NCBI RefSeq assembly: GCF_036245865.1
Contig: NZ_BTTW01000008.1
Coordinates: forward strand, 160,396-224,395
From: Corallococcus caeni
Lineage (GTDB): Bacteria; Myxococcota; Myxococcia; Myxococcales; Myxococcaceae
Direction: 5' to 3'
DNA: 64,000 nucleotides
This document shows, in pieces, positions 7,728-59,606 of this stretch. A program made the translations under genes and the position numbers. The notes below the pieces were generated by a model that saw only the letters and a list, made by a program, of their open reading frames with translations, had not been told where the DNA came from and did no database searches. Position 1 is the first letter of the stretch. Each line of letters begins with the position of its first letter.

Positions 7728-7975
7728 GGATGGGTCTCGGTCTGTGAACTGACTGCGACCCGCGCTTGAGCAAGGAGCGCACCAGGGGAATTTTGAGGGC
7801 AACGCTGGATCCGGCGCGCCGGGGCTGGTGCGCCGGAACCGGGTCGTTCTCCGATGTCCATGGAAAATGACCCGCCAGGACTGTCAGGAATTGGCCGGCC
7901 GCTGGGGGCAAACCAGACACGGGCTCGCGGTGCTGAAGGCCTGTCACTTCACGGTACGGCGTTTGCTCTGGCCTC

Positions 7976-44648: not shown

Positions 44649-44689
44649 CGGCGGGCGGTCCTCGCGAGGGGGCCGCCCGTTGTCTTTTC
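44649..44689. terminator. Rho-independent terminator between convergent genes
   Basis: A GC hairpin (CGGGCGG tCCTCGCGAGGgg CCGCCCG) is followed by TTGTCTTTTC. Confidence 0.6.
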
Positions 44690-45173
44690 AGGGGAGCGGA
44701 GAGGTGACGTAGTCCTTCCCGTCGGAATGACAGCCGTGGCAGCTGGAGTGGGCGCGGCCGTAATAGTTGTCGGAGTAGGTCGGGCCGAAGCCCTCGTAGA
44801 AGACCCAGGTGTCCTTGCCGGGGCCCTCGGCGACCTTCACGTCCAGCGCGTGGCCCCGGAGCGTCTTCCCGTCGTCCTCGAAGAGCTCCTTCACGAGGAT
44901 GCTGCCCACGGGATGGGTGGCATTGCCTTCCCGGAGCGAGCTCGCGACGACGTCGTTGAAGAAGACGCGGACCTTGCTGCCGTGAGGGGCGCGCGTGTCG
45001 TGGACGGAGGGCTCCGCGAGCCAGGAGCTGTACTGGCCGGAGCGCACGAAGGCGGTGATGCCCTGTTCGGACGTGTCGAGCTGCTGGATGACGCCGAGCC
45101 CCTCGTCCACGGAGGAGGAGGGACCGCAGGCGCTGGCGAACAGGAGCGGCAGGAGCAGGGCATGGGGGCGCAT
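44688..45173 (-). CDS. Lipoprotein with a C-terminal CxxCH heme motif, resembling cytochrome P460 / cytochrome c'-beta
   Basis: The 161-aa protein has the lipobox LFASAC and a single CHGCH motif 15 residues from the C-terminus. Confidence 0.5.
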   Translation of the reverse strand: MRPHALLLPLLFASACGPSSSVDEGLGVIQQLDTSEQGITAFVRSGQYSSWLAEPSVHDTRAPHGSKVRVFFNDVVASSLREGNATHPVGSILVKELFEDDGKTLRGHALDVKVAEGPGKDTWVFYEGFGPTYSDNYYGRAHSSCHGCHSDGKDYVTSPLP

Positions 45174-45221: not shown

Positions 45222-45842
45222 TCATTGGGGCGAATAGGTGTGGGTCAGGTCGATGACCAGGGACTCCACGATGGGCGGAAACGCGAGCTCGATGTGGCCC
45301 CGGTTCAGATCCGCGCGGGTGACCTGGTAGGAGGTTCCGCCGAACTCGTCATCGAAGGTGAAGTCATCGTTGTCGAAGATGGAGATCTCGATGGGGTGCA
45401 GGAGGAGGTTGGACGTGATGACCTCACAGCTGCCCGAGCGCCATTCGGGCTCCCAGCTCTCGTCCTCGGCGGTGCGGGTGCGCTCCGGAGCGGAGGGGCA
45501 GCGCATCTCCACGACGACGTCGGGAGGGGAGCCGTCGGAATCCCAGTCCTCGCCGTTGTCCGGATCGACGTCCACGATGAAGGCCCGGCGGGGCTGCACC
45601 CGCGTCCGCATCACGCCCGCGTAACAGGCCCGGGTATCGAGCCGACAGACATTGCCGTCGGGACAGCTCTCACAGAGGGCGCCGCTGGAGCCGCAGAGGG
45701 CGTCGCCGAGGTCGAGGACGCACACGTTGCTCACGGAGCAGCAGCCGTTCGCGCAGCTCTCCGGAGTGCACTCGGGCTCACCGCAGGCCGGGAGGAAGAG
45801 GGCGCACGTCAGGGCCATCAGGAGCAGGCAGGGCGTTTTCAT
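45222..45842 (-). CDS. Cys-rich lipoprotein (paralogue A)
   Basis: The start is the internal ATG (MKTPCLLLMALTCALFLPACG) of track ORF 45222..45920. It is paralogous to the 50338..51018 product. Confidence 0.6.
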   Translation of the reverse strand: MKTPCLLLMALTCALFLPACGEPECTPESCANGCCSVSNVCVLDLGDALCGSSGALCESCPDGNVCRLDTRACYAGVMRTRVQPRRAFIVDVDPDNGEDWDSDGSPPDVVVEMRCPSAPERTRTAEDESWEPEWRSGSCEVITSNLLLHPIEISIFDNDDFTFDDEFGGTSYQVTRADLNRGHIELAFPPIVESLVIDLTHTYSPQ

Positions 45843-45880
45843 GACGGTCGTGAAGGCTACCAGAGGCGGTTCACTTCGCG

Positions 45881-47098
45881 GTGACTGCGGCCAGGATGTA
45901 TCGGGGCAGCAGATCCTCACGGAACTTCCGCCAGACCCGCGGTGAACAGCACGACGAGGTCGAACTTCATGAGATCGGCGATCTGCTATTCATTCGTCTC
46001 GTGACATCCCACGTCGGCCAATACCAGCGCATCCGCCTGCTCGCCGAAGGCATCATCGAGGACCATCTGGCCAAGGCCGCTGGCCCGCAGGGCATCGAGA
46101 AGACGCTGGTGCTCCAGTGCCTCCGGCCGGACATGGCCGAGCAGATGGAGTTCCCGGAGCTGTTCCTCGACACGGCGAGGACCGCCGCCCGGCTCACGCA
46201 CCCGCACCTCGTGAAGGTCTTCGACTTCGGTGCGGCGGACGGCACGTACTTCCTAGCCAGGGAGCACGTCGATGGGATCAGCCTGAGCAGGTTGATCAAG
46301 CACCTGGCGGTCCAGCGGATGACCCTGCCGGCGACGCTGTGCGCGCGCATCATCTCGCAAGCCTGCGAGGGGCTCGCCTATGCCCACGACCTGACCCACC
46401 CCGAGACGCACGAGCCGCTGAGGCTCATCCACCGCTGCATCCGGCCGTACAACATCCTCCTGTCGCGTCAGGGGACGACCAAGGTGGTGGACTTCGGCAT
46501 CGACCATCTCCGGTCCCGGTGGACCCCCGAACACCCGCTCCCCGTCATGAGCAAGTACGTGTACATGGCGCCCGAGGAGATAAGGGGCGAGCGGGCAGAC
46601 CGGCGGGTCGACGTCTACGCGCTCGGAGTGGTGCTCTACGAGTTGCTCACCACGCGCAGGCCCTTTTCGTCCACGTCCGAATGGGATTTGCCTCGGGCCG
46701 TCATGTCCGAGCCCATGGTGCCCGCCGAGCAGCACCGCCCGGACCTGCCCGGAGTCCTGCGAGCCATCCTCGCCCGGGCGCTCGCGAAGGATCGGGACCA
46801 GCGCTACCCGGACTGCCAGGCGTTCCGGGAGGACCTGGAGCAGTTCATCCGCTCGGAGGGTGAGCCGGTGACACCGCGGCAGGTGGCCCAGCTCGTCCAG
46901 CAGATCACCGCGAGCGACGACCCAGCCGTCAGTGCTCCGGCTCCGGACGACCTGGAGACCCAGGCACGGCTCCGCTTGGGACGACGCTGGATCCTCGCGG
47001 CGGCCGTGGGCCTGGGGGTCCTGCTCGGAGGCGGCGCGCTGCTCTGGAAGATGAGCGCTGCGCCCGAGCCCGAGAAGGTCCGCGCTACTCCACCGTGA
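45881..47098 (+). CDS. Ser/Thr kinase-like protein, a predicted pseudokinase, with a C-terminal TM anchor
   Basis: The kinase fold has DFG and APE, but the catalytic loop reads HRCIRPYN instead of HRDLKPxN. No VAIK lysine is evident. A C-terminal helix (WILAAAVGLGVLLGGGALLW) follows. Confidence 0.55.
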   Translation: MTAARMYRGSRSSRNFRQTRGEQHDEVELHEIGDLLFIRLVTSHVGQYQRIRLLAEGIIEDHLAKAAGPQGIEKTLVLQCLRPDMAEQMEFPELFLDTARTAARLTHPHLVKVFDFGAADGTYFLAREHVDGISLSRLIKHLAVQRMTLPATLCARIISQACEGLAYAHDLTHPETHEPLRLIHRCIRPYNILLSRQGTTKVVDFGIDHLRSRWTPEHPLPVMSKYVYMAPEEIRGERADRRVDVYALGVVLYELLTTRRPFSSTSEWDLPRAVMSEPMVPAEQHRPDLPGVLRAILARALAKDRDQRYPDCQAFREDLEQFIRSEGEPVTPRQVAQLVQQITASDDPAVSAPAPDDLETQARLRLGRRWILAAAVGLGVLLGGGALLWKMSAAPEPEKVRATPP

Positions 47099-48536
47099 GC
47101 GGGAACAAGGCGGATGCCGGATGGCCCGTCACCGTGAGGACGCGAGGCTCCTCCTTGTCCTGCCACTGCCAGTATTTGGCCTGCGACTGCCACGAGCACG
47201 GCTCGACGGTGATGGTCAGCGGTCCTGAGCCCTCTCCCCGGGGCTTGAAGGTCACCTCCAGCTCCGCGGTGGCCTCTCCCTCCAGGCCGGCGGCAACCCC
47301 CACGAGATTCACGCGGTTCTCATCCACCATCGGGAGTGGCTGGCCGCGATACCGCACGCTCACGTCCACCACGCGAGCGCCGACGAGCGCCCCGGACACC
47401 CGGATCCGCACGGCCTCACACGAGGTCCCGTCATTGCGCACCACCGAACGCCACGTCTCGGTCACGGGCACGGACACGGTCAGCGGTCCCGAGGAGTGCT
47501 CGGTCCAGTGGAGCGCGGGCGTCTTGTAGCCCACGTGCATGAGCGGCGCGCCCGGGCTCACCGGCCGGTTCGAGGCGTGGAGGCGCAAGGGGGGGCCGGG
47601 CTCGGCGGTGAGCAGGAAGAGCGCGTCACTGTCCTCGGCGCCCACCCACCACCGGTCAGTCCCCGCGGGCGTCACGGACACGATGCGGGGCCACTCTCCC
47701 ACGAGTGTCTCCATCACCTGGAGCCCGGGCAGGGACACCAGGAGGGTCTTGTCCTGCACGAAGAGGAGCGCCCGGGACGCGTCGAGAACGCACACCCCGG
47801 CACCACCCCAGATCAGTTCATCCTCTTCATCGTCATCACCCTCTTGGTCCGGGATGGACCCGAGCAGGGTGCCGTCGAGCGCGAAGTGGAGGAGCGCCGT
47901 CTGCCGGTAGTTGATGACGAGCAGGAGAAGCACGCCCTGGGGAGTGGCTAGGGCCCGCCAGATGTCCTGCTCACCGCCCGGCTCCACCTGAAGCGCGCCC
48001 TCCGGCTGAGTCGCCCCCGGGCGGAGCACGTAGACGCGGCCTCGGCCTTTCTCGAGGACGGTGATGCCAAAGGGGCTCGAGTCGAGGAACGCCCCATCGG
48101 AAACCTGCCGGAGGGGGAGCCCCTCCGAGTATCCGTACCCGTGCGTGGCGTGCACGGGCTTGGGCAAGGTCATGGGCTCCCATCGCTGCCCGGACGCATC
48201 GGTCGCGAAGAGGGTGGTCAGCTTAAGGGCGCCGTCCACCACCGCTCCGACGAGCCGGTCCCCATCGGAGGTGAGATCGAAGCACTCCCTCGGAAAGGCC
48301 AGGACGGGAGCGCTCGCGCCGGCTCCTGCGGAGAAGACACGGCGATCCCCGTTTCCCACCCAGACGTCCTGTCCCTCATTGAGCGCGGCGAGCACCACGG
48401 GCGCGGACGGATGATCCACCACGTCTCCACTGGCCTCCCGGCGCACGCCTTCGGCTCCATGGAAGACGATGAGCCGCTGCGGTCTGAGATCAAACAACCA
48501 CGGTCCACGGGCCAGGAGGCGACGTCTCGGGTACAT
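47085..48536 (-). CDS. Hypothetical protein
   Basis: The 483-aa ORF has GC-rich third codon positions. It is convergent with the pseudokinase and overlaps it by 14 bp. Confidence 0.45.
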   Translation of the reverse strand: MYPRRRLLARGPWLFDLRPQRLIVFHGAEGVRREASGDVVDHPSAPVVLAALNEGQDVWVGNGDRRVFSAGAGASAPVLAFPRECFDLTSDGDRLVGAVVDGALKLTTLFATDASGQRWEPMTLPKPVHATHGYGYSEGLPLRQVSDGAFLDSSPFGITVLEKGRGRVYVLRPGATQPEGALQVEPGGEQDIWRALATPQGVLLLLVINYRQTALLHFALDGTLLGSIPDQEGDDDEEDELIWGGAGVCVLDASRALLFVQDKTLLVSLPGLQVMETLVGEWPRIVSVTPAGTDRWWVGAEDSDALFLLTAEPGPPLRLHASNRPVSPGAPLMHVGYKTPALHWTEHSSGPLTVSVPVTETWRSVVRNDGTSCEAVRIRVSGALVGARVVDVSVRYRGQPLPMVDENRVNLVGVAAGLEGEATAELEVTFKPRGEGSGPLTITVEPCSWQSQAKYWQWQDKEEPRVLTVTGHPASALFPLTVE

Positions 48537-48700: not shown

Positions 48701-50068
48701 CTATGCCGAGGGTGACCACCAGCCGGAAGTGTCCGGAAGGGAGACCACCCGCTCCTCCAAGGCTTCGACACAATCCGGATGCCTGCCTTCAGTCTGGCGG
48801 AGTGCTTCCGCGAGCGCCTCCATCCGACTCCACTCCTGTTCTTTGAACGTGTGGCTGCGGATGACGCTTGGGATGGGGGCGTCATTCTCCTCCAGCCCCC
48901 ATCGTGCCCGCTCACGTTCCAGTTGGGTTCCCCGTAGCAACATGAGGGGAAACGCCTTGAGCACGGGCACTTGCCGACGGAGGCAGAAGTCGACCGTTTG
49001 TCGAAAGGACTCCAACGTCTGCTCGGGCAGCCCGAAGATGATGGAAACCTCGAAAGGGATGCCGCGCGCGTGGAGCTTGCGGACTCCTTCCACCACCTTC
49101 TCGAGATGATTCACGCGCTCCACGGCGCGTGCCTCCTTCTCGTGGATGGTCTGCAGGCCAAACTCAAGCCGGACCGCGAGCCCTTCGCAGGCGTCGAGGA
49201 ACTCATCATCCAACGTCGAGAAGTGGCACTGCAAAGACAGCCGTCCGCGATAGTCAAGCCGCTGGAAGGTTCGCAGCACCGCCAGCGCGTGATCCCCGAG
49301 ATTGAAGAGCGGATCCAGCACGGCGATGTCGTTCACTCCCGAGCGCACGAACAGCCCAATCTCTTCCTCAAGCCGAGCCATGGGGAGGTCACGGCGACGC
49401 AACCGGCTGCCGGCCTCCCGGTGCTGGCAGAACGAGCAGCGGAAGGGACACCCGCGCTGGGTTTCCCACCGGATGAACCGTTGCTCCCCTGAAAGTTCAA
49501 TCACGTCTTCGAGGAAGGGGGACGCAAGCGTCTCCAGCTTCGCCTGTGCTTGGACGCCAGCATCCAACTGGCCAGCCCAATGGACTCCTGGAAACCGGAT
49601 TCGATCGGACGTGGCGGCAATCGCCACCATGGCCTCTTCGCCATAACCCCGGACGAATCCATCCGCTTCAGGGTAGAGCTGCTCAAGGCCCGGTCCCGCG
49701 TAGGAGACCTGGGGCCCTCCGAGGATGATACGCCCCGCGAATCCGCTCCGACGCAGCGCCCCCAGAAGCTTCTTCACCACCCGGTCGTTCCACACGTAGA
49801 CGCCAAGGCCCAAGTCTACGTCCCGAGCCTCAAGTCCCCGTGCACCTTCAAGCACGCTCCACAGGATGTGCTCCTCACTGAAGTCAGAGCGATTGATGGC
49901 AAACGAGAACGCTCGCACGTCGACGTTCGCCTTTCGCAGTGCCGCGACGATGGAGGCATGTCCCAGGGGGAGGCGAGGGTCTTTGTCGCGCGTCCAATCA
50001 ATCGAGACCAGAATGACCCGCCGTGGCTGAGGTGGGACAGAAATGACCTCGGAGCTCCGACTGGACAT
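48701..50068 (-). CDS. B12-binding-domain radical SAM protein
   Basis: The 455-aa protein has an N-terminal B12-binding-like domain (RVILVSIDW...). It carries the CPFRCSFC (Cx3Cx2C) radical SAM cluster motif. Confidence 0.8.
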   Translation of the reverse strand: MSSRSSEVISVPPQPRRVILVSIDWTRDKDPRLPLGHASIVAALRKANVDVRAFSFAINRSDFSEEHILWSVLEGARGLEARDVDLGLGVYVWNDRVVKKLLGALRRSGFAGRIILGGPQVSYAGPGLEQLYPEADGFVRGYGEEAMVAIAATSDRIRFPGVHWAGQLDAGVQAQAKLETLASPFLEDVIELSGEQRFIRWETQRGCPFRCSFCQHREAGSRLRRRDLPMARLEEEIGLFVRSGVNDIAVLDPLFNLGDHALAVLRTFQRLDYRGRLSLQCHFSTLDDEFLDACEGLAVRLEFGLQTIHEKEARAVERVNHLEKVVEGVRKLHARGIPFEVSIIFGLPEQTLESFRQTVDFCLRRQVPVLKAFPLMLLRGTQLERERARWGLEENDAPIPSVIRSHTFKEQEWSRMEALAEALRQTEGRHPDCVEALEERVVSLPDTSGWWSPSA

Positions 50069-50256
50069 TTGCTCCCCCAGAAACGGCTCGCGTGGACTGT
50101 TCTGCGGTGCCGATGACTCCGCTCTCTCCGGACGAAAAGGGCCGCGGAAGATTCAACCGCAAGGAGAAGGGCTGGTGAGCCCTCTTATCCAAGTGGAGGA
50201 GATGGTTCTGACCGATTTCACTTCGCCTGTGCATCCCCCATGAGGAGTAGGAACCG

Positions 50257-50310
50257 GATACGAAAACGCCGCCCCACTTCCGATGGACCGGAAGTGGGCG
50301 GCGATGACAC
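50257..50310. repeat. Palindromic repeat element, copy Y (15-16 bp inverted repeat CGCCGCCCCACTTCCG/CGGAAGTGGGCGGCG)
   Basis: It lies downstream of the minus-strand lipoprotein gene. It is about 80% identical by eye to the element at 59708..59768. Confidence 0.55.
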
Positions 50311-50337
50311 TGCTTGGGACCTCGGCGCGGTGACCGG

Positions 50338-51018
50338 CTATTCGGCGTAGTAGGTGGTGACCTGGAAGGCCACGGACATCAACGCACTGGAACCCGTGAG
50401 CTCCACGACGCCACGGTCGATGTCGGAGCGGGTCATCTGGTACTGCGCCGACGCAATCGGGTCGTCGAAGATGGCGTCAACATCAATGACGGTGAACTGG
50501 ATGGGGGCCGAAAGCAGATCGGTACTGAGGACGTCGCATGAGCCCTTCGTCCAGGTGGGGGTGAAGCTCTCAACTTCCTCCGAAGGGGGGACGGCGGCTG
50601 GCGTGTTGGGGCACGACAGCTGAATCACGACATCCGGCGGCGAGCCATCAACGTCCCAGTCGCTGTTGTCAGCGGGATCCAGCGGCGCGATCTGCGCACG
50701 AAGGGGCTGGATCTTCGTGCGGATGGTGGGGGTGTAGCACTGCTGCTTGGAAGGGTGGCACATCATCCCGGTTGTGCACTTGGAGCAGGTGCTGCCGTTA
50801 GGACCGCATGCGTCGGCGGTGCGAGTCATGACGCACTTGTTGGTGGTTGGGTCGCAGCAGCCTTCACAGCTCTCCGCAGTACAAAGCTCGGTGAGCGGAG
50901 GCGGGTCATCCGTGATGGGGTCGGGGCCGCCTGGGCTGAGGTCCTCGGGCCCACATGCGGCAAGCAACAAGAAGGACGCCAAGCCAAGGCAAGTAAGGAT
51001 TCGATGGGTGATTTTCAT
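50338..51018 (-). CDS. Cys-rich lipoprotein (paralogue B)
   Basis: The 226-aa protein has the lipobox LLLAACG. It shares CxxGCC, a DWDxDGSPPDVV block and C-terminal similarity with the 45222..45842 product. Confidence 0.65.
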   Translation of the reverse strand: MKITHRILTCLGLASFLLLAACGPEDLSPGGPDPITDDPPPLTELCTAESCEGCCDPTTNKCVMTRTADACGPNGSTCSKCTTGMMCHPSKQQCYTPTIRTKIQPLRAQIAPLDPADNSDWDVDGSPPDVVIQLSCPNTPAAVPPSEEVESFTPTWTKGSCDVLSTDLLSAPIQFTVIDVDAIFDDPIASAQYQMTRSDIDRGVVELTGSSALMSVAFQVTTYYAE

Positions 51019-51024
51019 TGTCTT

Positions 51025-52782
51025 TTAGTTGAGTTGAAGCACGAGAACGCGGGTACTTTTGTCCATCCGCACTTCGGCCGTTGACATCCTGATCACAGGA
51101 ACGCTCGCAACCTGGGTGCGCCGTCCTCCTGGCGTGGCCGCGAGAACGATGGGCGCGGGGGTTGTAGATGCGAGCGCAGTGACGGTTTGAGGTTCGGCAT
51201 AGCCAACGAGGAAGAGTTCGCCAGTGGCTCGTACACGGTGAACCTCGATTCCGTCTGGCAGGTTCCCGTAGGTCGGAGTGTTGGCGTTGTAGGTTGGAAT
51301 CGAATCCATCCGAAGGAAGGCGTAGCGACCTCTCGGAAGCTGAGCGATCCGCGATCCTCGCTCGGATTCTGACGCAGGCACGACCTGGTGCTGCTGGCGC
51401 ACAGCCCTGATCTGTGTACCTGGAGCCATGGGCACGAAAGCGGAAGGTGGCTGCTCGATGGGACGCACATCCGTCATTGGTGGTGATCCCTTGCCGCTTT
51501 CAGGTCGCTGCGAGACCACGGCAATCCCCCCTGCGATCACCCCTCCCGCGATGACGACCGCGAGCCGACTGGAGCCCGAGCGACTCGGTGTAGCAGGCGG
51601 TGCTGGGACTTGGATGACAGGAGAGACCGTGATGACTGGAGAGACCGTGACAGTCGCGGTGCTCGGCGCTGGCGTTGAGCCAGCCGGCACGGATGGCGCG
51701 GGCTCAGGAGGTTTCGGGGGGCTGTGCGACGTCGGCGCAGTCTGCACCGTGGCGTTGGCGCTTGCGTCGGATCGTGTGGAGGGTGGCGGTGTCGGTTGGC
51801 CCGCGGTTCGAGGGTACGAGAGCTGGGCGCTGGCCGCGCCAAATTGTTTCCGCAGGTCGGGGAAGAACTTGTGGCAGTCGATTCCGCCATAGCAGCGAAG
51901 CCCCTTGCTACCTCTCAGATTGGCGACCCTGCTGAAGAGATTTGGATTGCGGGCCTCAATCACGGCGTCTTCTTCTCCGTAGAACCCCCAGAGGATGTCG
52001 ACGTCCTTGTGTCGATCGACGTCAATGGTTGCGAGGGTCTGGGTGAAGACGTCATCCCACCCGCCGTACCCGATCACGACCAGCGTGTGGTCTTGAAGAA
52101 TCTGGATCAACTCCGCGGAGACGTGTCTGCGCTCGCGACCAAGCTGGATACCCGTGTGTAACGTAGGCGAACGGTGCCAGTAGCCGTGAAGATGGATGAT
52201 GTGTGTGGATTTGGATGAGGCAGGGACTGTCTGCCCAAACGGGATGTCACTGGCCACGATGGTGCGATGGAAATCGCCACCGGCCACCTTCACCGATGCC
52301 GAGATGAGGGGATCAAAGTTCGTGGTCAAGACAGGACCAAACGTCTCAGCTCTTTCCACCAGCAATCTACCGAGGTGCTCCGTCGCGGGCGGCAAGGCCC
52401 ATCCGCCATGGTCCAGATCCAACTGGTCGTCAGTCGCCGCTCCATCGCGTTTGCGGTCCACCCGTGCGCGAAGCACCGCCTCTCGAACAACCCTCTCGGA
52501 GACATCCTTATCGCAATGGCCTTGTACGAAGCGCATGGCCCATTGGTATTTGTTTTCTTTGGTGTACTCGCGCTCCGTGTCGAATTTCGCTTGGAATCCG
52601 GCCGGAACGTGCTCGCGGATGAGATCCAGCATTGCATTCACCCCAGGAACCTGAGGGGCGTCAGCTCGTTCCTGCGTCGACAAGGGAGAGCCCACTAGAA
52701 ACGCGATTTTCCGGTTTTTAGAGGCAGCGATGACAGCGTTTGGGAGCGCATCCTTCGGATGCAGGAACGGGTAGGAACTCAT
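51025..52782 (-). CDS. SIR2-like (SIR2_2 family) protein with a Pro/Thr-rich linker, one TM helix and a C-terminal domain of unknown function
   Basis: The N-terminal roughly 300 aa carry KIAFLVGSPLS (Rossmann), TTNFDPLI (catalytic Asn) and IIHLHGYWH (catalytic His). A TM helix (LAVVIAGGVIAGGIAVV) and a roughly 150-aa C-terminal domain follow. GC content is lower than in the surrounding DNA. Confidence 0.75.
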   Translation of the reverse strand: MSSYPFLHPKDALPNAVIAASKNRKIAFLVGSPLSTQERADAPQVPGVNAMLDLIREHVPAGFQAKFDTEREYTKENKYQWAMRFVQGHCDKDVSERVVREAVLRARVDRKRDGAATDDQLDLDHGGWALPPATEHLGRLLVERAETFGPVLTTNFDPLISASVKVAGGDFHRTIVASDIPFGQTVPASSKSTHIIHLHGYWHRSPTLHTGIQLGRERRHVSAELIQILQDHTLVVIGYGGWDDVFTQTLATIDVDRHKDVDILWGFYGEEDAVIEARNPNLFSRVANLRGSKGLRCYGGIDCHKFFPDLRKQFGAASAQLSYPRTAGQPTPPPSTRSDASANATVQTAPTSHSPPKPPEPAPSVPAGSTPAPSTATVTVSPVITVSPVIQVPAPPATPSRSGSSRLAVVIAGGVIAGGIAVVSQRPESGKGSPPMTDVRPIEQPPSAFVPMAPGTQIRAVRQQHQVVPASESERGSRIAQLPRGRYAFLRMDSIPTYNANTPTYGNLPDGIEVHRVRATGELFLVGYAEPQTVTALASTTPAPIVLAATPGGRRTQVASVPVIRMSTAEVRMDKSTRVLVLQLN

Positions 52783-52822
52783 CGGGAGACGAACGCTATC
52801 AGAAGCGCAGGCGGGTTCGAGT

Positions 52823-54388
52823 TCAGGCGGCCCGCTCGCGTTGACCGCCCTGTTCCTCCTCTTGGAGCGCCAAGGTCTTACGGTACTCCGCCGCCTCCGC
52901 GAGCTGGGTCAGCTCGAACTCCCCGTGGTGCTTGCGCACGGCCTGGGCGATCTCATCCAAGCTGACGCGGAAGAACTCCTTGCGCTCATTGATGCGGTTG
53001 ACGCGCCTGTTCGCGAACGTCCTGTGGAGTGCGTTCTCCAGGGCCGGGGCGTCCGAGGTCCGGATGATGGCGTGGACATCGAACTCGAAGGGCACGGATG
53101 CATCCCCCAGCTCGTCGATGCGGTCCTGGGGCACGAGCCTCCTCGTCATTCCCAGCTTGAACACACCTTCCCCAAACGAGCCGATGTTGGAGATGACGTA
53201 GACGTGCCCCGTCCGCGTGAGCTGGGCCTGGGAGATGGCTCGCTGCTTCTCCAGGTCTTCGGCCACGCGGCGCTCCAGCTCGGCGATGCGTTCCAGCAAC
53301 TTCTGCTGCTCGGAGCCCTTTGCCCGATCGTAGTCCGCCTTCGCCTTCGCCAGGGCCTCGGCGTCACGCTTCGACTCGCGCTCCGCCTCCAGCTTCGCCT
53401 TCTCCAGCTCGCGCTGGGCGGCCTCCTCCTCTCGCATCTGCTCCCGGATGCGGCGCTGTTCGTCCCGCTCCTGTTGCACCTTCTCCGAGTACTCATACGC
53501 GAGCATCAGCTCCTCGACCTTGAGCTTGACGTAGCGCCTGTCGATGACACACCGCTGTATCTCCACAAGGCCATTTATGGCGGCAGCTGCCTTCTCGATG
53601 CGCGTCTCCATTGCCTTCACGTTCTTGTACGAAACCTTCGCGACACACGCATCCGCTTCGCCATTGAAGGCCCGGAGCATCAGCTTCAAGGTACGGTCCG
53701 TCTGCTTCTTGCCCTCCGCCTTGCTGCCATTGACCTCCCACTGGAGAGAGCACGTGGCGGCTTCCTTGTTCTTCAGCATCTGTTTCTGAGAATCGCGGAG
53801 CCTCTCCAGGCGGTCCTCGTATTCCTTCACGGACGAGAGGGCGTACACCGGCTTGTAGAAGCCAAAGGAGAGCAGGACCTCCTCTTCCTCAAGGGCCTTC
53901 AGCTCGGCCTTCAACCGGGCGAGGCTTGACTCCAGGCTGGTTCGCTCGGTGTTCGCCTGCTTTCGCCGCGCTTCCGCCTCCTCCATGGCGCGTGTCGCGC
54001 TCTGGGTCGTCTTCGCCGTCTCTTCACGGATCCGGCTCAGCTCCGCCTTCGCCCGGCTCTGTTCGGCCGCGATGGCTTGCTCCACGTCCGCCTTGGCCCG
54101 GGCCAGCTGGGTTTCCACCCGCTTCTGCTCCGCCGCCAGCGCGTTGTCCGCCTCGCTCCTGGCTTTCGCCAACTCTTCACGGACCCGCTTCTGCTCCGCG
54201 GCAAGCGCAGCGTCCGCGTCCGTGCGCGCCCGCGTCAACTCCTCGGCCACCCGCCGCCGTTCGGCCTCCAGGTCCAGGATGGGCTTGAAGCGCTCCTGGA
54301 CGGCCTTGAGCCGACTTCGTGTCTGGAACCACAACCCGAGGAGCAACAGACTCAATACGCCCAGTCCAACGGCAATCATCGTGGTCAT
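52823..54388 (-). CDS. DUF4041-like coiled-coil protein with a C-terminal T5orf172 (GIY-YIG-like, MUG113) domain and an N-terminal TM helix
   Basis: The start is the internal ATG (MTTMIAVGLGVLSLLLLGLWF) of track ORF 52823..54496, preceded by AGGAGA. It has 22-aa coiled-coil repeats. The C-terminus reads GHVYVISN...FKLGMTRR...DRIDEL...PFEFDVHAII...LHRTFANRRVN...EFF. Confidence 0.8.
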   Translation of the reverse strand: MTTMIAVGLGVLSLLLLGLWFQTRSRLKAVQERFKPILDLEAERRRVAEELTRARTDADAALAAEQKRVREELAKARSEADNALAAEQKRVETQLARAKADVEQAIAAEQSRAKAELSRIREETAKTTQSATRAMEEAEARRKQANTERTSLESSLARLKAELKALEEEEVLLSFGFYKPVYALSSVKEYEDRLERLRDSQKQMLKNKEAATCSLQWEVNGSKAEGKKQTDRTLKLMLRAFNGEADACVAKVSYKNVKAMETRIEKAAAAINGLVEIQRCVIDRRYVKLKVEELMLAYEYSEKVQQERDEQRRIREQMREEEAAQRELEKAKLEAERESKRDAEALAKAKADYDRAKGSEQQKLLERIAELERRVAEDLEKQRAISQAQLTRTGHVYVISNIGSFGEGVFKLGMTRRLVPQDRIDELGDASVPFEFDVHAIIRTSDAPALENALHRTFANRRVNRINERKEFFRVSLDEIAQAVRKHHGEFELTQLAEAAEYRKTLALQEEEQGGQRERAA

Positions 54389-54401
54389 GGTTGTCTCCTG
54401 T

Positions 54402-57400
54402 TCAGGCGCTGGCGGCGCGCATCTGGTTCTCCGCCGCGGGCTCCTCGCGCACCACGGCCGGCAGCTCCGCCGCCTCTTCCCGAAGCACCTCTTCAACGTG
54501 CGCGACGATCCGGGCGACCTCTTCCGATGGCGAGCGGAACCAGTCCGTGGACCAGATGCGGTGCAGCCTCCATCCCAGGCCCTTCAGCACCTGATCCCGG
54601 AGGCGGTCCCGGTCCCGGGCGGAACGTGACGAGTGATACCTCTCTCCGTCACACTCGACGCCAAGGACGTAACGGCCCGCTTGCCGAGGATGCCGCAGGG
54701 CCATGTCGATGAAATAACCCGCGACGCCCACCTGCGGGACCACTTCGAATCCCCGCGCGACGAGCGCCTTCGCGACGGCAATCTCGAAGTCGGAGTCGGG
54801 TGGCCGACCGCTGCCCACGCCGTGCGCCACCTTCTCTCCCTTGGCTTCGGACAGGTATCGCTGCAGGACGCGCATCCCGCGGGGACTGCTTTCCTGGACC
54901 TTGAGCTCCGACGGGTCGAAGGACGCGAACACCGTCAGCGCGCACCGCGCCCGCGTGAAGAGGACGTTCAGCCGGCGGTACCCGTCCGCTTGATTGATGG
55001 GCCCGAAGTTCATCCGGAAGCGCTCGTTCTTGTCGGGACCGAACGTGACCGACACGAAGATGGCGTCGCGCTCGTCGCCCTGGACGTTCTCCAGGTTCTT
55101 CACGTCGAAGGGCATGGGGGACTTCTCCCACTTCGCCAGGAAGGCCCGGAGGGCCGCGTCGTTCTTCTCCTCGGCAGTCACCAGGTCGTCGATGAGCTCT
55201 CGCTGCTTCGAGTTCAACGTGACGACCAGCAGGCTCTGCTCCGGGCGCGTACGCGCATGCGCCTTCACCGCCGCCAGCACCTCGCGGGCCTCGGGAACGT
55301 TCCGGTTGGACTCGTACAATCCCTGCTCCACGCGGTGGAAGTGGAGGCCCAGCCCGTCCAACTGCTCGCCGGGCGCGGGGAAGGTGATGAGGTCGCCGTT
55401 GTAGAACTCGCGGTTGCTGAAGGCGATGAGCGAGGGGTGGCGGGACCGGTAATGCCAACGCAACATGCGCATGGGAAACCGCTCCGCCGCCGCCGTGAGG
55501 ATGCTCTCCGAATCCTCCAGGAAGGACGGCCCCTGGACCTCGTCTCCCTCCGCGCCCTCGGTGTCGGCGTCCTCCTGCTCCACCTGCGCGAAGAAGCTGG
55601 TGGGAGGAAGCTGCTCCGGGTCGCCCACCACCACCAGTTGCCGACCTCGGGCAATGGCTCCCAGCGCGTCCTCGGGACGCATCTGGCTGGCCTCGTCCAT
55701 CACGACCAGGTCGAAGGTCAGCTGCCCGGCGGGCAGGTATTGGGCGACGGACTGCGGCCCCATCATGAAGCAGGGCATCAACGTCTGGAGTGCACTGCCG
55801 GCGCGTGCCACCAGCTCGCGAATGGGGAGGTGCCGCTGCTTCTTGCCCAGCTCGTGCCGCAGGAGATGCGTCTCCGTCATGCCCGCAACCTTTGCCGACG
55901 ACACGCCGGGAGGGACCGGACGCTGACTGAGTTGACGCGCCAGGTATCGGCCCTGCTTTTCGATGCAATGCGTGTCCAGGCGGGCGAACTCCTCACGCTG
56001 GGAGGCGTGAACCGCGCCCGTGAATTGATCGAGCTCCGGCTGGTCTCGCAGGATGGCTTCCGCCAGGGAGCGGAAGAAGACGGCGTCAAAGGCCGCGACC
56101 AACTGCTCCGGCTCCAGGCCGGGACGGGTGTCGACGCGCTCCAGGAACCCCAGGGTGCTCCGCGCTCGCGCGACGGCGCGCCGCTGCCGTTGGTACGCGC
56201 ACCAGGCCGGGAGCGTCGCGGACTGGCTTCGAGCCTGGCGCAGGCGCATGACCGTCGCCTGGAGCGGCTTCTCGGCGGCGGGTTCCTCCCAGGTGCCGGG
56301 CGCCATCCTTCCCAGCTCCCAGGCCTGATTGGCGGACTGGCTATAGGCGGTGAGCGCTACCTCCACGTCATGCGTGGCGGTGAGCAGGTCCGCGTGCCTC
56401 CGTGGCGTGTCCTTCCTCAGCAGCCACTCCGCCAGCCCCTCGGGCAGTGGCGCCGCGAAGAGGACGTCGACATGGCGCAGGGCGCTTCGAGGGCCCGCGA
56501 GGGACGTCTTCCGACCCCGGTATGCGATCCCTGGCAAGCCCGCCGCCGGGGCATGCGCTTCCAGCCGGTTCTCGGCTTCGCAGGCCTCGCGCACCCGGCG
56601 CAGCTGTCCCTGGAGCTGGGAAAGGGTCAAGGACGGCAGGGCATCTCCCTTTCGTGCCCAGTTCAGGACCTCACCCAGGTGTTTCAACAAGGCATCGAGG
56701 CTGTCCTGGGCCTTGCCGCAGGGTTCGGTGTTCCAGGGGGCGTGCGGCAGACCCATGCGCGTCGCGGCTTCCTGCACGGTAGTGCTCACGTCGCGGGCCT
56801 GGAGCAACTCGTCACCCCACACGCGGGTCTTCGCCAGGGCCTCCTGCCAATGGCTCGCCGGCCGCTCCAACACCGCGCGGCGGAGTTCCGCCCCTCGCTC
56901 TCCCAGCGAAAGGAGCAATGCATCGACGTTCCGGTAGGCGTCCACCCACGAAAGAATCCGGTCGAAACGCGTATCGACTCCCTGGAAGCGGGCGCCCAGG
57001 GTCGCTTTCAAGGTCGCGTCCTCGTGGAATCGCTCCCGCGCCGCGTGGTGCGCCAGCAGGTCGGTGTAACCCTGGAGCAACACGGGCCGCGTCGGACGGA
57101 CGCCGTGGGACATGGCCTGGAAGTCCCGCCTCGCCGCACGCCATGCACCCGAGAGCCAGGGGATGAAGGGCGCGGTCGAAACCGCGACGGCATGTGCCTT
57201 GAGCGTCGTGAGCGGAGGAACGAGTTCGGGCATGAAGCGCACCGCGAGCGCTCGCGCCTGGTCCTTCAGCTCCGAGCAGGTGCTGCCGGCCTTCCGAAGC
57301 AACTCCTCGGCCTCGCGCTCGACCCAACGCGCGTCCCGCCACTCCAGGGCGGCGTCATCCAGGACCGCCATCGCTTCGACGACGCGGACAAACGTCTGGA

Positions 57401-59606
57401 GCTGCTGCGGCGTCCAGAGCGTGACGTCCACCTCCAGGCATGAGGCCACTGCAGCCATGAACCGGCGTCCCTGTGCCAGGGCCCGGGCTGCTGCATCCAC
57501 CGCTTCATGCGCGCGTGTCAGCGTGATGAGCGTGGTGTCTGGCGAAAGCAGGCGCAGGGCCGTGTCGAGGATGGCTTGCGCGTCACGCACGGTGGGTACG
57601 GTCAGGTCCTCCTGGGCACGCCAGCCCGCCTCCAGCCCCGCCCACCGCGCCTGGACCGACTCGATGGCATCGAGCAGGGCGCGCAATCCCTCGCGCTGCG
57701 TGGCATCAAGCAGGGTAGGGATCAGCTCCGGAGGAGCCCCCTCCGGAAGGCGTGGAAGGACCCGGACGTTTGAGACCAGGGCATCCGCCGCGAGCGCGCT
57801 CGACCTGGGGGTGATGCCAGTTCGGACTGTGAACGCAGCCAGCGCCTTCTCCAGGAGCAGCGTGGACTCTTCCCAGGCCGCGATCCGTTGAACGAGTGTC
57901 TGGCGGTCCTTGTCCGTCAGCGCGTCGTTCGTCACCCCCGCAAAGGGGTGGGCGCAGAGGACGGGAGCGACGCGGCGAACGTCCCCCAACTGCGCAGCGA
58001 GGCCCCGAACCGTGTCGCGGACCTCCGCCAGCGCAGTGGAGGACATGCTCTCCGCGCCCTCGAAGCGCAGGCCCTCCAACTCGACGACTGCTTCTCCCAG
58101 CTCCGCTTCAGTGCGACTGACCTTCCAGAACACGTCGTGCGGTGACATGCCGAGCGCCCCGAATGGCTTGTGCATCCGCTCGGTATGCGCGCGCAGGATG
58201 CCCGCGGCGCTCGAGACCTGTTCGGTGAGCGGCCGGGGAGCGCTCGCGCCTGCGTCCAGGTTGAGCCTTCGCCGCAGGTCCTCCATGAACTGCTGCTTCT
58301 GGGTCTTGTGGCTGTGCAGCTCCAGGCAGAACTCACCCAGCCCCGCCTGCTGGAGGCGGCGTGAGACGACCTCCAGCGCCGCCAGCTTCTGCGTGACGAA
58401 CAGCACGGTCTTGCCCGCCGCCAGCGCAGCTCCGATGAGGTTGGTGATGGTCTGTGACTTCCCGGTGCCGGGCGGTCCCTGCACCACCAGGTTCTCACCC
58501 CGGAGCACGTCCACCAGCACGCTGTGCTGACTGCTGTCCGCGTCCGTGATGAGGGGTGGAGGATTCAGCTCCGGCGAGTCCAGGTCATAGACCTCGCTTC
58601 GGCGTTCCCGGAGGCCGCCTCCGCCTCCTGCGCCTCCTCCCGGTTCATTCGCCTGCGCCTGTCCTCCCATCAGCGTGCGAACGAGCGGGTTGGCCAGCGG
58701 GGAACCGTTCTGCGGCCATCGGGTTGGCTCCAGGTCCCGCCACATCAGGAGCCGCCCGAAGGACAGCAGCGTCAGCGTGACCTGCCGCTCCAGCCCCCAT
58801 CCGGGGCGCAGGCCCTTGAGCAGCGCCGTCACCTTGTCGAAGTACGCCTCCAGGCCTTCCTCGGCGGAGAAGGCCGGCAGCGCGATGCCGAACTCCTGCC
58901 TCAGCTTCTCCTGGAGCGTGAGGTTCAGCTCGATGGACTCGCCTTCGTTGTAGTCGACCTCGTAAGCGTGGACCTGGGTGTCCGGGTGGGCCTGGCCGCG
59001 CTTGAGGCTCACCGGCATGAGCACGAGCGGTGCGCTGCGCGGCTTCTCCTGCCGGGTATCACCAGACTCGTACCAGCGCAGGAACCCGAAGACGAAGTGG
59101 AGCAGGTTGGCTCCGGTCTCCTGGATGGCTGTCTGCGCGAGCCCCTGGAGGCGGTGCAGGTGGCCCTCCAGATCCTCCGGGAAGTACAACGTCTGCAGGT
59201 GGCGGTCCTGATGCTTGCGAGGAGGGGTGCCGCTCTCCGTGGGGGCCGCCTTGGGCAGCTCATACCGGGTGTCGATGCCCAGGCGCTTCGCCTGTTGAAG
59301 CAGCAGCTTCTGCCGGGCGTCCTTGCTGGGGACCTCCTCGGTCATCGAGAACACCACGGTCGCGGCGGCGGGGTCGAAGTCCTCCTGTTCCTCGGAGTCC
59401 TGCTCCGGTGGCGTCACCGGGAGGAACGTGAGCGCGCGGTGGTTGCTCAGCCGCTCGAAGACGACACCTGGAAGTTCATCCACGATTCGCAGCGACGTCC
59501 TGGCCGTGTGCTTGAAGTGGAGGAGCCGGTTGGTTGCGCTCAAATCCAGCAACCGGTTGCGTTGCCGCTGAAGCTCTTTCAGCATGACCGAGTCGTGCGG
59601 AGTCAT
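54402..59606 (-). CDS. Giant DUF4011-family SF1 (Upf1-like) helicase with a C-terminal DUF559 / PD-(D/E)xK endonuclease-like domain
   Basis: The 1734-aa protein has the N-terminal DUF4011 signature LxxLxxRLLDLSATNRLLHFK, Walker A VQGPPGTGKSQTI, motif II VVMDEASQM and motif VVVGDPEQLPP. The C-terminus (ECDGERYHSS...DRDRLRDQVLKGLGWRLHRIW) is Vsr/DUF559-like. Confidence 0.85.
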   Translation of the reverse strand: MTPHDSVMLKELQRQRNRLLDLSATNRLLHFKHTARTSLRIVDELPGVVFERLSNHRALTFLPVTPPEQDSEEQEDFDPAAATVVFSMTEEVPSKDARQKLLLQQAKRLGIDTRYELPKAAPTESGTPPRKHQDRHLQTLYFPEDLEGHLHRLQGLAQTAIQETGANLLHFVFGFLRWYESGDTRQEKPRSAPLVLMPVSLKRGQAHPDTQVHAYEVDYNEGESIELNLTLQEKLRQEFGIALPAFSAEEGLEAYFDKVTALLKGLRPGWGLERQVTLTLLSFGRLLMWRDLEPTRWPQNGSPLANPLVRTLMGGQAQANEPGGGAGGGGGLRERRSEVYDLDSPELNPPPLITDADSSQHSVLVDVLRGENLVVQGPPGTGKSQTITNLIGAALAAGKTVLFVTQKLAALEVVSRRLQQAGLGEFCLELHSHKTQKQQFMEDLRRRLNLDAGASAPRPLTEQVSSAAGILRAHTERMHKPFGALGMSPHDVFWKVSRTEAELGEAVVELEGLRFEGAESMSSTALAEVRDTVRGLAAQLGDVRRVAPVLCAHPFAGVTNDALTDKDRQTLVQRIAAWEESTLLLEKALAAFTVRTGITPRSSALAADALVSNVRVLPRLPEGAPPELIPTLLDATQREGLRALLDAIESVQARWAGLEAGWRAQEDLTVPTVRDAQAILDTALRLLSPDTTLITLTRAHEAVDAAARALAQGRRFMAAVASCLEVDVTLWTPQQLQTFVRVVEAMAVLDDAALEWRDARWVEREAEELLRKAGSTCSELKDQARALAVRFMPELVPPLTTLKAHAVAVSTAPFIPWLSGAWRAARRDFQAMSHGVRPTRPVLLQGYTDLLAHHAARERFHEDATLKATLGARFQGVDTRFDRILSWVDAYRNVDALLLSLGERGAELRRAVLERPASHWQEALAKTRVWGDELLQARDVSTTVQEAATRMGLPHAPWNTEPCGKAQDSLDALLKHLGEVLNWARKGDALPSLTLSQLQGQLRRVREACEAENRLEAHAPAAGLPGIAYRGRKTSLAGPRSALRHVDVLFAAPLPEGLAEWLLRKDTPRRHADLLTATHDVEVALTAYSQSANQAWELGRMAPGTWEEPAAEKPLQATVMRLRQARSQSATLPAWCAYQRQRRAVARARSTLGFLERVDTRPGLEPEQLVAAFDAVFFRSLAEAILRDQPELDQFTGAVHASQREEFARLDTHCIEKQGRYLARQLSQRPVPPGVSSAKVAGMTETHLLRHELGKKQRHLPIRELVARAGSALQTLMPCFMMGPQSVAQYLPAGQLTFDLVVMDEASQMRPEDALGAIARGRQLVVVGDPEQLPPTSFFAQVEQEDADTEGAEGDEVQGPSFLEDSESILTAAAERFPMRMLRWHYRSRHPSLIAFSNREFYNGDLITFPAPGEQLDGLGLHFHRVEQGLYESNRNVPEAREVLAAVKAHARTRPEQSLLVVTLNSKQRELIDDLVTAEEKNDAALRAFLAKWEKSPMPFDVKNLENVQGDERDAIFVSVTFGPDKNERFRMNFGPINQADGYRRLNVLFTRARCALTVFASFDPSELKVQESSPRGMRVLQRYLSEAKGEKVAHGVGSGRPPDSDFEIAVAKALVARGFEVVPQVGVAGYFIDMALRHPRQAGRYVLGVECDGERYHSSRSARDRDRLRDQVLKGLGWRLHRIWSTDWFRSPSEEVARIVAHVEEVLREEAAELPAVVREEPAAENQMRAASA

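Follow-up and report, generated by a model that had tools for sequence, protein, structure and literature searches.

A SIR2-domain membrane protein and its adjacent C2 lipoprotein as a candidate envelope-spanning abortive-infection module in Corallococcus caeni

The stretch of Corallococcus caeni DNA analysed here (the window, 64,000 nucleotides) carries a gene whose product joins a SIR2-like domain to a linker, a hydrophobic segment and a C-terminal region (Table 1). The question raised by this arrangement is whether an NAD+-degrading effector may be coupled through the membrane to a sensor of envelope events, as a sequence-only reading of the same DNA had proposed. The open reading frame is evidently a real gene; its full-length homologues in Corallococcus are 48-67% identical over 97-100% of the length, homologues in metagenomes are 31-44% identical, and the copy in the C. 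caeni assembly GCA_036245885.1 is identical at 568 of 585 positions. A promoter and terminator scan of 49900-53000 gave nothing exceeding shuffled expectation. Together with the lipoprotein gene that follows it, the SIR2 gene probably makes up an undescribed two-gene, envelope-spanning, outside-to-inside abortive-infection module; a literature search found no description of a SIR2/C-terminal-domain/lipoprotein cassette.

Table 1. Features of the SIR2 gene and of the lipoprotein gene next to it, in window coordinates.
Feature	Position	Strand	Basis or remark
SIR2 / linker / membrane helix / C-terminal domain gene	51025..52782	(-)	585 aa; stop codon 51025-51027
SIR2_2 (NADase-type) domain, aa 1-320	51823..52782	(-)	Pfam PF13289, PADLOC, invariant motifs
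Pro/Ser/Thr/Ala-rich linker, predicted cytoplasmic side, aa 321-406	51565..51822	(-)	composition; variable in homologues
Single predicted membrane helix, aa 407-423 (LAVVIAGGVIAGGIAVV)	51514..51564	(-)	hydropathy, conserved position, positive-inside bias
Pro-rich spacer, aa 424-454, predicted periplasmic	51421..51513	(-)	composition across family
C-terminal alpha/beta domain (predicted), aa 455-585	51028..51420	(-)	no Pfam family, no PDB structural relative
226-aa lipoprotein partner gene	50338..51018	(-)	starts 6 nt after SIR2 gene stop
Lipobox LAAC, Cys22 of lipoprotein	nt 50953-50955	(-)	signal peptide end
10-cysteine module, lipoprotein aa 46-94	nt 50737-50883	(-)	
Predicted C2 domain, lipoprotein aa ~98-226	nt 50341-50727	(-)	

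The N-terminal domain matches the Pfam family SIR2_2 above the gathering threshold (32.2 bits against 24.5, E 1.4e-7, residues 151-253). Its motifs are GSPLS (31-35), TTNFD (153-157, with Asn155), HLHG (197-200, with His199) and GYGGWD (238-243), and the motif residues, Asn155 and His199 included, are invariant in 11 homologues. Thus the earlier assignment to a SIR2_2 NADase-type domain holds, and the motifs on which it relied are backed by the HMM as well as by the invariant residues. The NAD-binding loop, G31-S32-P33-L34-S35, is invariant in the clade and is a variant of the usual GxGxS; the corresponding loop of STAND-bearing relatives reads G[SA][PA]L[ST]. The closest relatives of the domain are SIR2-NB-ARC/TPR proteins (~40% identity; 36-41% over the domain), and the SIR2 parts of the PADLOC pAgo, Aga and PDC-S65 models match it weakly (E 1e-8 or weaker). 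A PDB sequence search with the SIR2 domain alone retrieved nothing relevant, and a PDB search with the family profile retrieved FAM118B as its sole match (E 0.04). Asn155 and His199 align with N163 and H206 of FAM118B, where mutation of either residue abolishes NAD processing, according to PMC12700824. The SIR2 domain is probably an NAD+-hydrolysing effector. Identity as a canonical sirtuin was considered and rejected on the missing match to the canonical Sir2 HMM (PF02146, none at E<=0.01 in the SIR2 protein) and on the missing four-Cys zinc ribbon, the protein having three cysteines (90, 297, 303) and no CxxC zinc-ribbon pairs.

The linker after the SIR2 domain differs in sequence and length among homologues, and the composition of residues 321-415 (Pro 22%, Ser 16%, Ala 14%, Thr 13%) agrees with the Pro/Thr/Ser-rich linker described before. 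Hydropathy reveals one strong hydrophobic segment in the SIR2 protein, L407-V423 (Kyte-Doolittle mean 2.08 over 19 residues), which is rich in small residues, and no N-terminal signal-peptide-like segment or export signal. The position of this helix is conserved in all full-length homologues and in variants with PNP, TIR and LmuA-type domains, all multi-domain members having a 17-residue segment with hydropathy >2 there. The single transmembrane helix foreseen from the sequence is therefore retained. Topology was judged by a positive-inside charge count in 35 distinct family members. Counted over 15 residues to either side of the helix, the N-terminal flanks have 111 K+R and 30 D+E, and the C-terminal flanks 60 K+R and 54 D+E; in the window SIR2 protein alone the bias is weak, with 2 K+R on each side. 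The family charge bias favours a topology in which the enzyme is cytoplasmic and the C-terminal domain extracytoplasmic. As there is one helix, the two ends of the protein necessarily lie on opposite sides of the membrane, and export of a 400-aa enzyme without a signal peptide is implausible. The layout of cytoplasmic SIR2 domain, helix and extracytoplasmic C-terminal domain suggested by the sequence-only reading thus gains support from helix conservation, charge bias and the lack of an export signal. The spacer between helix and C-terminal domain measures 25-76 aa across the family, with Pro contents of 15-38% in most members and 8-11% in a few.

The C-terminal domain had been put at about 150 aa with no recognisable motif. 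A folded domain is indeed predicted, but the length was too generous, as the conserved core spans only ~131 aa (residues 455-585), preceded by a ~30-aa Pro-rich spacer. AlphaFold2 models the domain with a mean pLDDT of 96.6 and a pTM of 0.90, which rules out the low-complexity C-terminus considered at the outset. It belongs to no Pfam family and resembles no structure in the PDB, and it is predicted with confidence to be a folded alpha/beta domain of no known fold. R462 and E513 are invariant, G485, H515, G527 and P562 are nearly so, and there are no cysteines. The domain has ~500 homologues; a word-indexed homologue search with a 52-row profile of the domain returned one protein and added nothing. 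The distant relatives P0180, P0191 and P0199 (E about 1e-12) are small and have neither helix nor signal, and P0173 and P0246 carry K/R after an N-terminal helix; no lipoprotein gene adjoins any of these. Thus the domain does not appear to be intrinsically extracytoplasmic, and in such distant relatives it can apparently also work in the cytoplasm.

The gene that follows on the same strand encodes a lipoprotein, with a signal peptide and lipobox (MKITHRILTCLGLASFLLLAAC) of the form sought (signal peptide ending in [LVI][ASTVI][GAS]C), the lipobox Cys being invariant in 12 homologues. The family has 12 conserved cysteines, which together with the lipobox indicates that the lipoprotein is extracytoplasmic. 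Its structure, predicted from a 10-row alignment, includes an eight-stranded C2 beta-sandwich. The Asp clusters D122/D129 and D179/D181/D185/D186 are invariant in the lipoprotein alignment, so that the predicted C2 domain would keep the acidic loops of Ca2+/lipid-binding C2 domains and is a putative binder of such ligands. PADLOC v2.0 gives no match for the lipoprotein, and an NCBIfam search with the SIR2 protein, the lipoprotein, the lipoprotein paralogue and two neighbours found none. Each of the ten distinct cassettes read (window, L001, L013, L002, L004, L005, L008, L021, L029 and L030) has a homologous lipoprotein gene, either 0-71 nt downstream or with a 4-nt overlap; these cassettes span four effector types, and the genes sometimes overlap or abut. 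By this gene order, the lipoprotein is a conserved and apparently translationally linked partner of the SIR2 protein. It is homologous at 39-49% identity across cassettes with SIR2, PNP, TIR and LmuA-type effectors. Between pairs of cassettes, identity in the C-terminal domain rises and falls with identity in the lipoprotein (r 0.84, Mantel p about 2e-4), a correlation that is driven largely by closely related pairs and that simple co-inheritance would also give. Orphan lipoproteins with no C-terminal-domain gene nearby are found as a paralogue at 45222-45920 of the window, belonging to the core genome of Corallococcus/Myxococcus, and as the full-length L037, one of six loci in a metagenome contig scan with the lipoprotein. 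Thus the cassette copy may borrow a housekeeping role.

The effector end of the protein is the part that varies. Among 70 C-terminal-domain relatives scanned, the N-terminal domains are PNP_UDP_1 (7), SIR2_2 (5), TIR (4), FAD/NAD Rossmann (4), Metallophos (2) and EAD5 (1), and SIR2 can thus give way to a TIR, PNP nucleosidase, Lamassu LmuA-type, Metallophos or EAD5 domain while helix, C-terminal domain and lipoprotein stay the same. In PADLOC, the PNP form hits the CBASS PN-superfamily effector model, and the LmuA model matches the FAD/NAD Rossmann domain of P0141/L030, the only such member scanned (E 9e-91). EAD5 is described from conflict systems of multicellular prokaryotes in PMC7159879. 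From these architectures, SIR2 is evidently one of several interchangeable immune effector domains on one membrane/sensor chassis. As the outside half is joined elsewhere to other known immune "killer" domains, the whole looks like a receptor-type bacterial immune system.

The SIR2 gene sits inside a low-GC3 defence island in Corallococcus. Its GC3 is 0.667, against 0.85-0.93 in flanking core genes. The neighbours are the lipoprotein gene, PD-Lambda-1, Hhe and a radical SAM protein; PADLOC places Hhe and PD-Lambda-1/SNIPE upstream, the SNIPE homologue being the immediate neighbour, and PDC-M51A downstream. Elsewhere, an HNH PDC-M17A protein adjoins a PNP cassette. Downstream of the cassette, gene content differs between C. 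coralloides and the window, and the cassette is sporadic among Corallococcus strains. The isolate-genome scan, with the lipoprotein alignment as query, found examples only in Myxococcaceae, and a scan of viral contigs found no relative of the cassette. Among the systems catalogued in PADLOC v2.0, only partial SIR2-domain matches were found and no model covers the cassette. The linked lipoprotein, the exchangeable effectors and the island setting, none of them noted in the sequence-only reading, considerably strengthen its proposal of a membrane-tethered effector with an extracytoplasmic sensor domain.

The trigger of the module, its NADase activity and the contacts between its proteins are inferred from sequence comparison, and the mechanism would be as follows. 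The first gene would give a single-pass inner-membrane protein, with SIR2 in the cytoplasm and the 131-aa domain held in the periplasm on its Pro-rich spacer, and the second a disulfide-rich C2 lipoprotein. The periplasmic domain and the lipoprotein would jointly monitor the envelope, for example for a breach or for membrane disturbance from phage adsorption or genome injection. Altered contact between them would change the clustering of the membrane protein, bringing the cytoplasmic SIR2 domains together and switching on NAD+ hydrolysis, and the loss of NAD+ would arrest or kill the infected cell before the phage cycle is complete. The lipoprotein could either activate or restrain the enzyme. 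TIR effectors are activated by oligomerisation. Activation by assembly is likewise described for Avs5 in PMC11897194 and for FAM118B, the activity of which depends on head-to-tail filaments, in PMC12700824.

This mechanism would also serve a signalling or programmed-cell-death device of social bacteria, in which an envelope-stress, predation or developmental cue (e.g. fruiting-body lysis) leads to NAD+ loss; the mechanism is common to both explanations and the trigger alone differs. The restriction of isolate-genome examples to Myxococcaceae, the single member with EAD5 and its multicellular associations, and the core-genome paralogue of the lipoprotein are all consistent with such a device. 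However, the sporadic distribution, the low GC3 and the Hhe, SNIPE/PD-Lambda-1 and PDC-M51A neighbours speak for a mobile defence island and against a developmental gene, and a social cue is unlikely to be the trigger. It is distinctly unlikely that the hydrophobic segment is a mere anchor or oligomerisation helix, with the C-terminal domain on the cytoplasmic face, sensing for instance a cytoplasmic phage product, and the lipoprotein unrelated or indirect. The stand-alone relatives, for which a cytoplasmic location is implied, the cysteine-free domain and the weak charge bias of the window protein alone would fit that arrangement. Against it stand the strongly hydrophobic segment that all multi-domain members share at one position, the charge bias of the family as a whole, the separation of the two ends that a single helix forces together with the implausible export of the enzyme, and the extracytoplasmic lipoprotein gene adjacent in every cassette read, across four effector types.

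Polymorphic toxin loci are numerous in myxobacteria, and SIR2, TIR and PNP-type domains can be toxic. The cassette might then be a toxin/immunity or kin-discrimination locus, with SIR2 as toxin and the lipoprotein conferring immunity or serving in delivery, after the manner of the outer-membrane-exchange lipoprotein toxins of myxobacteria, a possibility to which the exchange of domains between homologues and the lipoprotein nature of the partner lend some colour. In polymorphic toxins, however, it is the C-terminal toxin that varies, following a trafficking region that does not, and a different toxin brings a different immunity gene. In the cassette the variation is at the N-terminal domain, which lacks an export signal, the effector domains match defence-system models, and the lipoprotein is homologous whatever the effector and so cannot be an effector-specific immunity protein; a toxin locus is very unlikely. 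Membership of the SIR2 superfamily would also allow a membrane-tethered housekeeping sirtuin, a protein deacylase regulating envelope proteins. This is hardly tenable given a match to SIR2_2 and not to the canonical sirtuin family, the mere three cysteines without CxxC pairs, the SIR2-STAND proteins as nearest relatives, the exchange of SIR2 for TIR, PNP or LmuA-type domains on a common chassis, the patchy distribution and the atypical codon usage.

The proposed abortive-infection module shares parts with several known systems. Similarity of its SIR2 domain is highest to SIR2 fused to NB-ARC/NACHT and TPR, as in Avs5 and other SIR2-STAND proteins (e.g. EfAvs5), and the effector logic is probably common, NAD+ depletion being switched on by assembly in Avs5 (PMC11897194). 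However, the window protein lacks the STAND NTPase, the P-loop and the TPR sensor of these relatives, which are 900-1000 aa long; it has instead the membrane helix, the predicted periplasmic domain and the lipoprotein partner, so that sensing would be extracytoplasmic. Thoeris ThsA, DSR1/DSR2, SIR2-HerA and SPARSA (SIR2-APAZ/pAgo) have in common with it the SIR2_2-type domain, with the Asn of TTN[FY]D and the His of HG. To our knowledge, these are all soluble and sense cytoplasmic signals. The window protein and its neighbours match no SLOG or ThsA/ThsB model and contain no HerA, pAgo/APAZ or large helical sensor. The VLTTNFD and HxHG motifs of human FAM118B and FAM118A, catalytic Asn and His included, align with the window protein, but overall similarity is very weak and the FAM118 proteins are soluble vertebrate proteins. 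The predicted C2 domain has 9-18% sequence identity to eukaryotic C2 domains (synaptotagmin/E-Syt, cPLA2, perforin), from which it differs in being bacterial, periplasmic and lipid-anchored, with a 10-Cys module before it.

Detection of phage at the envelope, or action on it there, is attributed to Zorya (ZorAB) and SNIPE/PD-Lambda-1 (PMC11890865, PMC13190303). Neither has a sequence or domain relationship to the window module. Zorya is an ion-driven motor recruiting nucleases and SNIPE a membrane-bound nuclease, whereas in the module a single-pass protein would link a metabolite-degrading enzyme in the cytoplasm to a domain predicted to be periplasmic. Another membrane-associated two-gene system, "System 4" of Kaur et al. 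2020 (EACC1 plus caspase), was considered and set aside as distinct. Animal Toll-like receptors offer an analogy only: they join a sensor outside the cytoplasm through one helix to a TIR-class death/signalling domain inside it, and TIR-bearing members are present in this family too. The sensors are non-homologous (LRR there, a new alpha/beta domain and C2 lipoprotein here), and the order is reversed, with the effector N-terminal here. More tentatively, and with the balance somewhat against it, the whole family may consist of single-pass transmembrane immune receptors that signal inwards and share the layout of Toll-like receptors, in which the new-fold domain and the putative Ca2+/lipid-binding C2 lipoprotein detect phage at the envelope before or during genome entry, and then activate by clustering an interchangeable SIR2, TIR, PNP nucleosidase or LmuA-type death effector.

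The NAD+- and ATP-depleting bacterial immune systems known to us sense phage components inside the cytoplasm. If the module does what its anatomy suggests, a receptor-like protein with a lipoprotein as co-sensor could drive these same effectors from outside the cytoplasmic membrane as well, and this would be an early-warning route for abortive infection. With two genes and about 2.5 kb, the module is directly testable. The prokaryotic immune toolkit would gain a widespread ~130-aa domain without a Pfam family or solved structural relative, as well as a bacterial periplasmic C2 domain, and the TIR-bearing members would parallel, in bacteria, the "extracellular sensor, one helix, cytosolic TIR" arrangement.

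The 585-aa ORF that carries the SIR2 domain is a genuine gene, since full-length homologues are found in several Corallococcus species (48-67% identity) and in metagenomes (31-44% identity), and a near-identical copy (568/585 residues) lies on a Corallococcus caeni contig sharing the gene order of the window at 97% DNA identity. The SIR2_2 domain, the linker and the one hydrophobic helix of the sequence-only reading are all recovered, the first above the Pfam threshold, and a signal-peptide-like segment was looked for at the N-terminus and is absent. Across 11 homologues there is no variation in the motifs TTNFD (153-157), HLHG (197-200) and GYGGWD (238-243). The sole solved relative found by the SIR2-domain family profile is human FAM118B (E 0.04), with Asn155 and His199 aligning to N163 and H206, mutation of which is reported to abolish NAD processing (PMC12700824). 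The zinc-ribbon cysteine pairs typical of canonical sirtuins are absent, and the NAD-binding loop, GSPLS, is unusual. The nearest SIR2-domain relatives (~40% identity) are SIR2-STAND proteins of ~1000 aa, which resemble the window protein in this domain but have NB-ARC/NACHT and TPR modules of their own. PADLOC gives only partial matches, confined to the SIR2 portions of candidate and pAgo-associated systems.

Coordinates and composition of the two-gene cassette and its neighbours in the window
Feature	Position	Strand	Details
SIR2/linker/helix/C-terminal domain gene	51025..52782	minus	ORF, 585 aa
SIR2_2 domain	residues 1-320		Pfam 32.2 bits, threshold 24.5
Pro/Ser/Thr/Ala-rich linker	residues 321-406		by composition
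Single strongly hydrophobic segment	residues 407-423		LAVVIAGGVIAGGIAVV
Pro-rich spacer	residues 424-454		
Conserved C-terminal domain	residues 455-585		
Partner lipoprotein gene	50338..51018	minus	226-aa ORF, starts six nt past SIR2 stop codon
Lipoprotein part 1			signal peptide with lipobox LAAC, Cys22
Lipoprotein part 2			ten-cysteine module
Lipoprotein part 3			beta-rich domain, two more conserved cysteines, invariant acidic clusters DWDVDGSPPD and IDVDAIFDD
Hhe/PDC-S37 helicase-nuclease	54402-59606	minus	upstream; 1734 aa; DUF4011, AAA_11/AAA_12, MTES_1575 REase
PD-Lambda-1/SNIPE homologue	52823-54496	minus	directly upstream of SIR2 gene; DUF4041 + T5orf172; PADLOC E 7e-155
B12-binding radical SAM protein	48701-50068	minus	downstream; PADLOC candidate PDC-M51A, E 1e-151; GC3 0.735
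483-aa protein	47085-48536	minus	convergent with kinase
Ser/Thr protein kinase	45881-47098	plus	
C2 lipoprotein paralogue	45222-45920	minus	about 40% identical; weak Pfam C2 match, E 2.9e-4
Putative lipoprotein	44688-45173	minus	161 aa; CHGCH (CxxCH haem-type) motif; follows paralogue

Flanking charges favour a cytoplasmic enzyme with the C-terminal domain outside the membrane, the orientation supposed in the sequence-only reading. The 15 residues on the N-terminal side of the helix total 29 K+R and 7 D+E in the 11 closest homologues, and those on the C-terminal side 13 and 15; over 35 distinct multi-domain members the K+R/D+E counts are 111/30 on the first side and 60/54 on the second. The N-terminal enzymes of these members are also large, lack signal peptides and have cytoplasmic substrates. 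Helix and domain are separated by 25-76 aa of spacer, most members having 15-38% proline there and a few 8-11%, and this would let the domain extend away from the membrane.

The C-terminal domain itself was modelled with AlphaFold2 (52-sequence alignment) as a compact alpha/beta fold (mean pLDDT 96.6, pTM 0.90), which rules out a low-complexity region; a folded domain had thus been rightly proposed, although its conserved core is shorter than the ~150 aa first suggested. The fold and remote-homology searches proposed with it were both run. In Foldseek, the best of 350,542 chains reached an E of only 0.53, and when eight C-terminal domains were combined into a profile and run against 1.84 billion representative proteins, 506 matches passed E<=1e-3 and 80 passed E<=1e-10. 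No Pfam family covers the domain in the 70 members scanned. R462 and E513 are invariant, and G485, H515, G527 and P562 nearly so. In P0135, a 526-aa relative, a signal peptide precedes three copies of the domain in tandem, and the protein is predicted to be a wholly secreted form. Distant stand-alone relatives either lack the helix or carry an N-terminal helix with K/R behind it, and the lipoprotein neighbour is absent. Thus, the domain is used on the inner side of the membrane in some proteins and on the outer side in others. Additionally, a 549-aa metagenomic protein (P0015) shares the SIR2 domain, linker and single helix and ends in a different domain of ~100 aa, unrelated in sequence, so the outside sensor may be exchangeable as well as the effector.

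The lipobox and 12 conserved cysteines indicate that the partner lipoprotein is extracytoplasmic. A homologue lies immediately downstream in all ten distinct cassettes read, including those of C. coralloides, C. sicarius and three metagenomic loci, in one of which (L002, SIR2 protein only 31% identical) the genes overlap by 4 nt. In C. sicarius the lipoprotein gene is present in two tandem copies (6896-7678 and 7743-8405 of locus L013). Over these ten cassettes, identities of the C-terminal domain and lipoprotein co-vary (r 0.84, Mantel p about 2e-4), which fits contact between them, yet co-inheritance would give the same result.

The N-terminal domain is variable. Among 70 C-terminal-domain relatives it is PNP_UDP_1 (7), SIR2_2 (5), TIR (4), FAD/NAD Rossmann (4), Metallophos (2) or EAD5 (1). 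A distant lipoprotein homologue (40% identity) follows a 589-aa protein with PNP_UDP_1, a Pro/Ser linker, one helix and a homologous C-terminal domain, an arrangement also seen in a Myxococcaceae MAG, and the lipoprotein gene directly follows TIR (L029) and Rossmann (L030) forms. Thus, the helix, C-terminal domain and lipoprotein are the constant unit and the effector is the variable one. The latter is drawn from the known immune-effector repertoire: the PADLOC models matched are the CBASS PN-superfamily effector (a class reported to degrade ATP; bioRxiv 10.1101/2023.01.24.525353) for the PNP domain, ThsB-like and candidate models for the TIR domain, and Lamassu LmuA (E 9e-91) for the Rossmann-type domain of the one member scanned (P0141, from L030). 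As the lipoprotein is homologous across effector types (39-49% identity), an effector-specific immunity protein is ruled out.

In the window the cassette sits between two groups of defence genes within a defence island. The helicase-nuclease upstream has PADLOC matches to Hhe (E 8e-278) and PDC-S37 (1242.7 bits; reported E of 0), and its 3' end overlaps by 95 nt the longest PD-Lambda-1 ORF call; in C. caeni and C. coralloides a shorter 521-aa form is called. A published account describes PD-Lambda-1, now named SNIPE, as a membrane-bound nuclease cutting phage DNA during injection (PMC13190303). The homologue here combines a hydrophobic segment at the N-terminus with a long region resembling a coiled coil. 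As it lies directly upstream of the SIR2 gene, two membrane-associated defence genes are adjacent. GC3 is 0.667 in the SIR2 gene and 0.789 in the lipoprotein gene, versus 0.85-0.93 in flanking core genes. C. coralloides shares the upstream genes and differs downstream; the radical SAM gene, present in C. caeni, is absent from the matching position, so island content varies. Elsewhere, an HNH protein matching PDC-M17A is a neighbour, and on two related metagenomic contigs (L004, 3902-5134; L005, 282-1517) a ~410-aa HSDR_N (restriction-endonuclease-like) protein with no PADLOC match lies directly upstream; it could be a third component particular to this lineage or a defence gene that is simply adjacent. 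Cassette copies were searched for on viral contigs and not found. The kinase, which has almost no sequence after a C-terminal hydrophobic helix, and the 483-aa protein, with no Pfam, NCBIfam or PADLOC match, separate the island from the paralogous lipoprotein. The paralogue seems to be the core-genome counterpart of the lipoprotein: its pairing with the 161-aa putative lipoprotein beside a BrkB-family gene is conserved in C. caeni and C. coralloides, and it recurs partnerless in other Corallococcus and Myxococcus genomes.

Alongside the observed anatomy, gene pairing, effector swapping, charge bias and island context, we propose that the periplasmic domain and the C2 lipoprotein would form the sensing end, that an envelope change would alter clustering of the single-pass protein, and that clustering would switch on the cytoplasmic effector, with NAD+ loss aborting infection. 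Clustering is suggested as the switch because assembly is reported to activate SIR2/TIR effectors in Avs5 (PMC11897194) and FAM118B (PMC12700824), and the small-residue-rich helix (AGGxxAGG) would suit helix-helix packing. A developmental or stress death switch of social bacteria, sharing this mechanism and differing in trigger alone, has a small but real chance of being correct, given that isolate-genome examples are all from Myxococcaceae and that no C-terminal-domain gene lies near the core-genome-like paralogue. A sensor on the cytoplasmic face, with the lipoprotein unrelated, is unlikely in light of the charge bias and the invariable lipoprotein adjacency. A toxin/immunity locus is quite improbable, as the variable domain is N-terminal, an export signal is absent and the lipoprotein is constant across cassettes, and a housekeeping sirtuin is scarcely credible, being disfavoured by the SIR2, C-terminal-domain, partner, swapping, topology and island evidence alike.

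No PADLOC model covers the two-gene system, and no description of the cassette was found in the literature open to full-text search; "System 4" of Kaur et al. 2020, also membrane-associated, is a different gene pair. The effector logic is already known; the sensing half and outside-in layout are, as far as we can tell, new. There is a substantial chance that the module represents a distinct receptor-type class.
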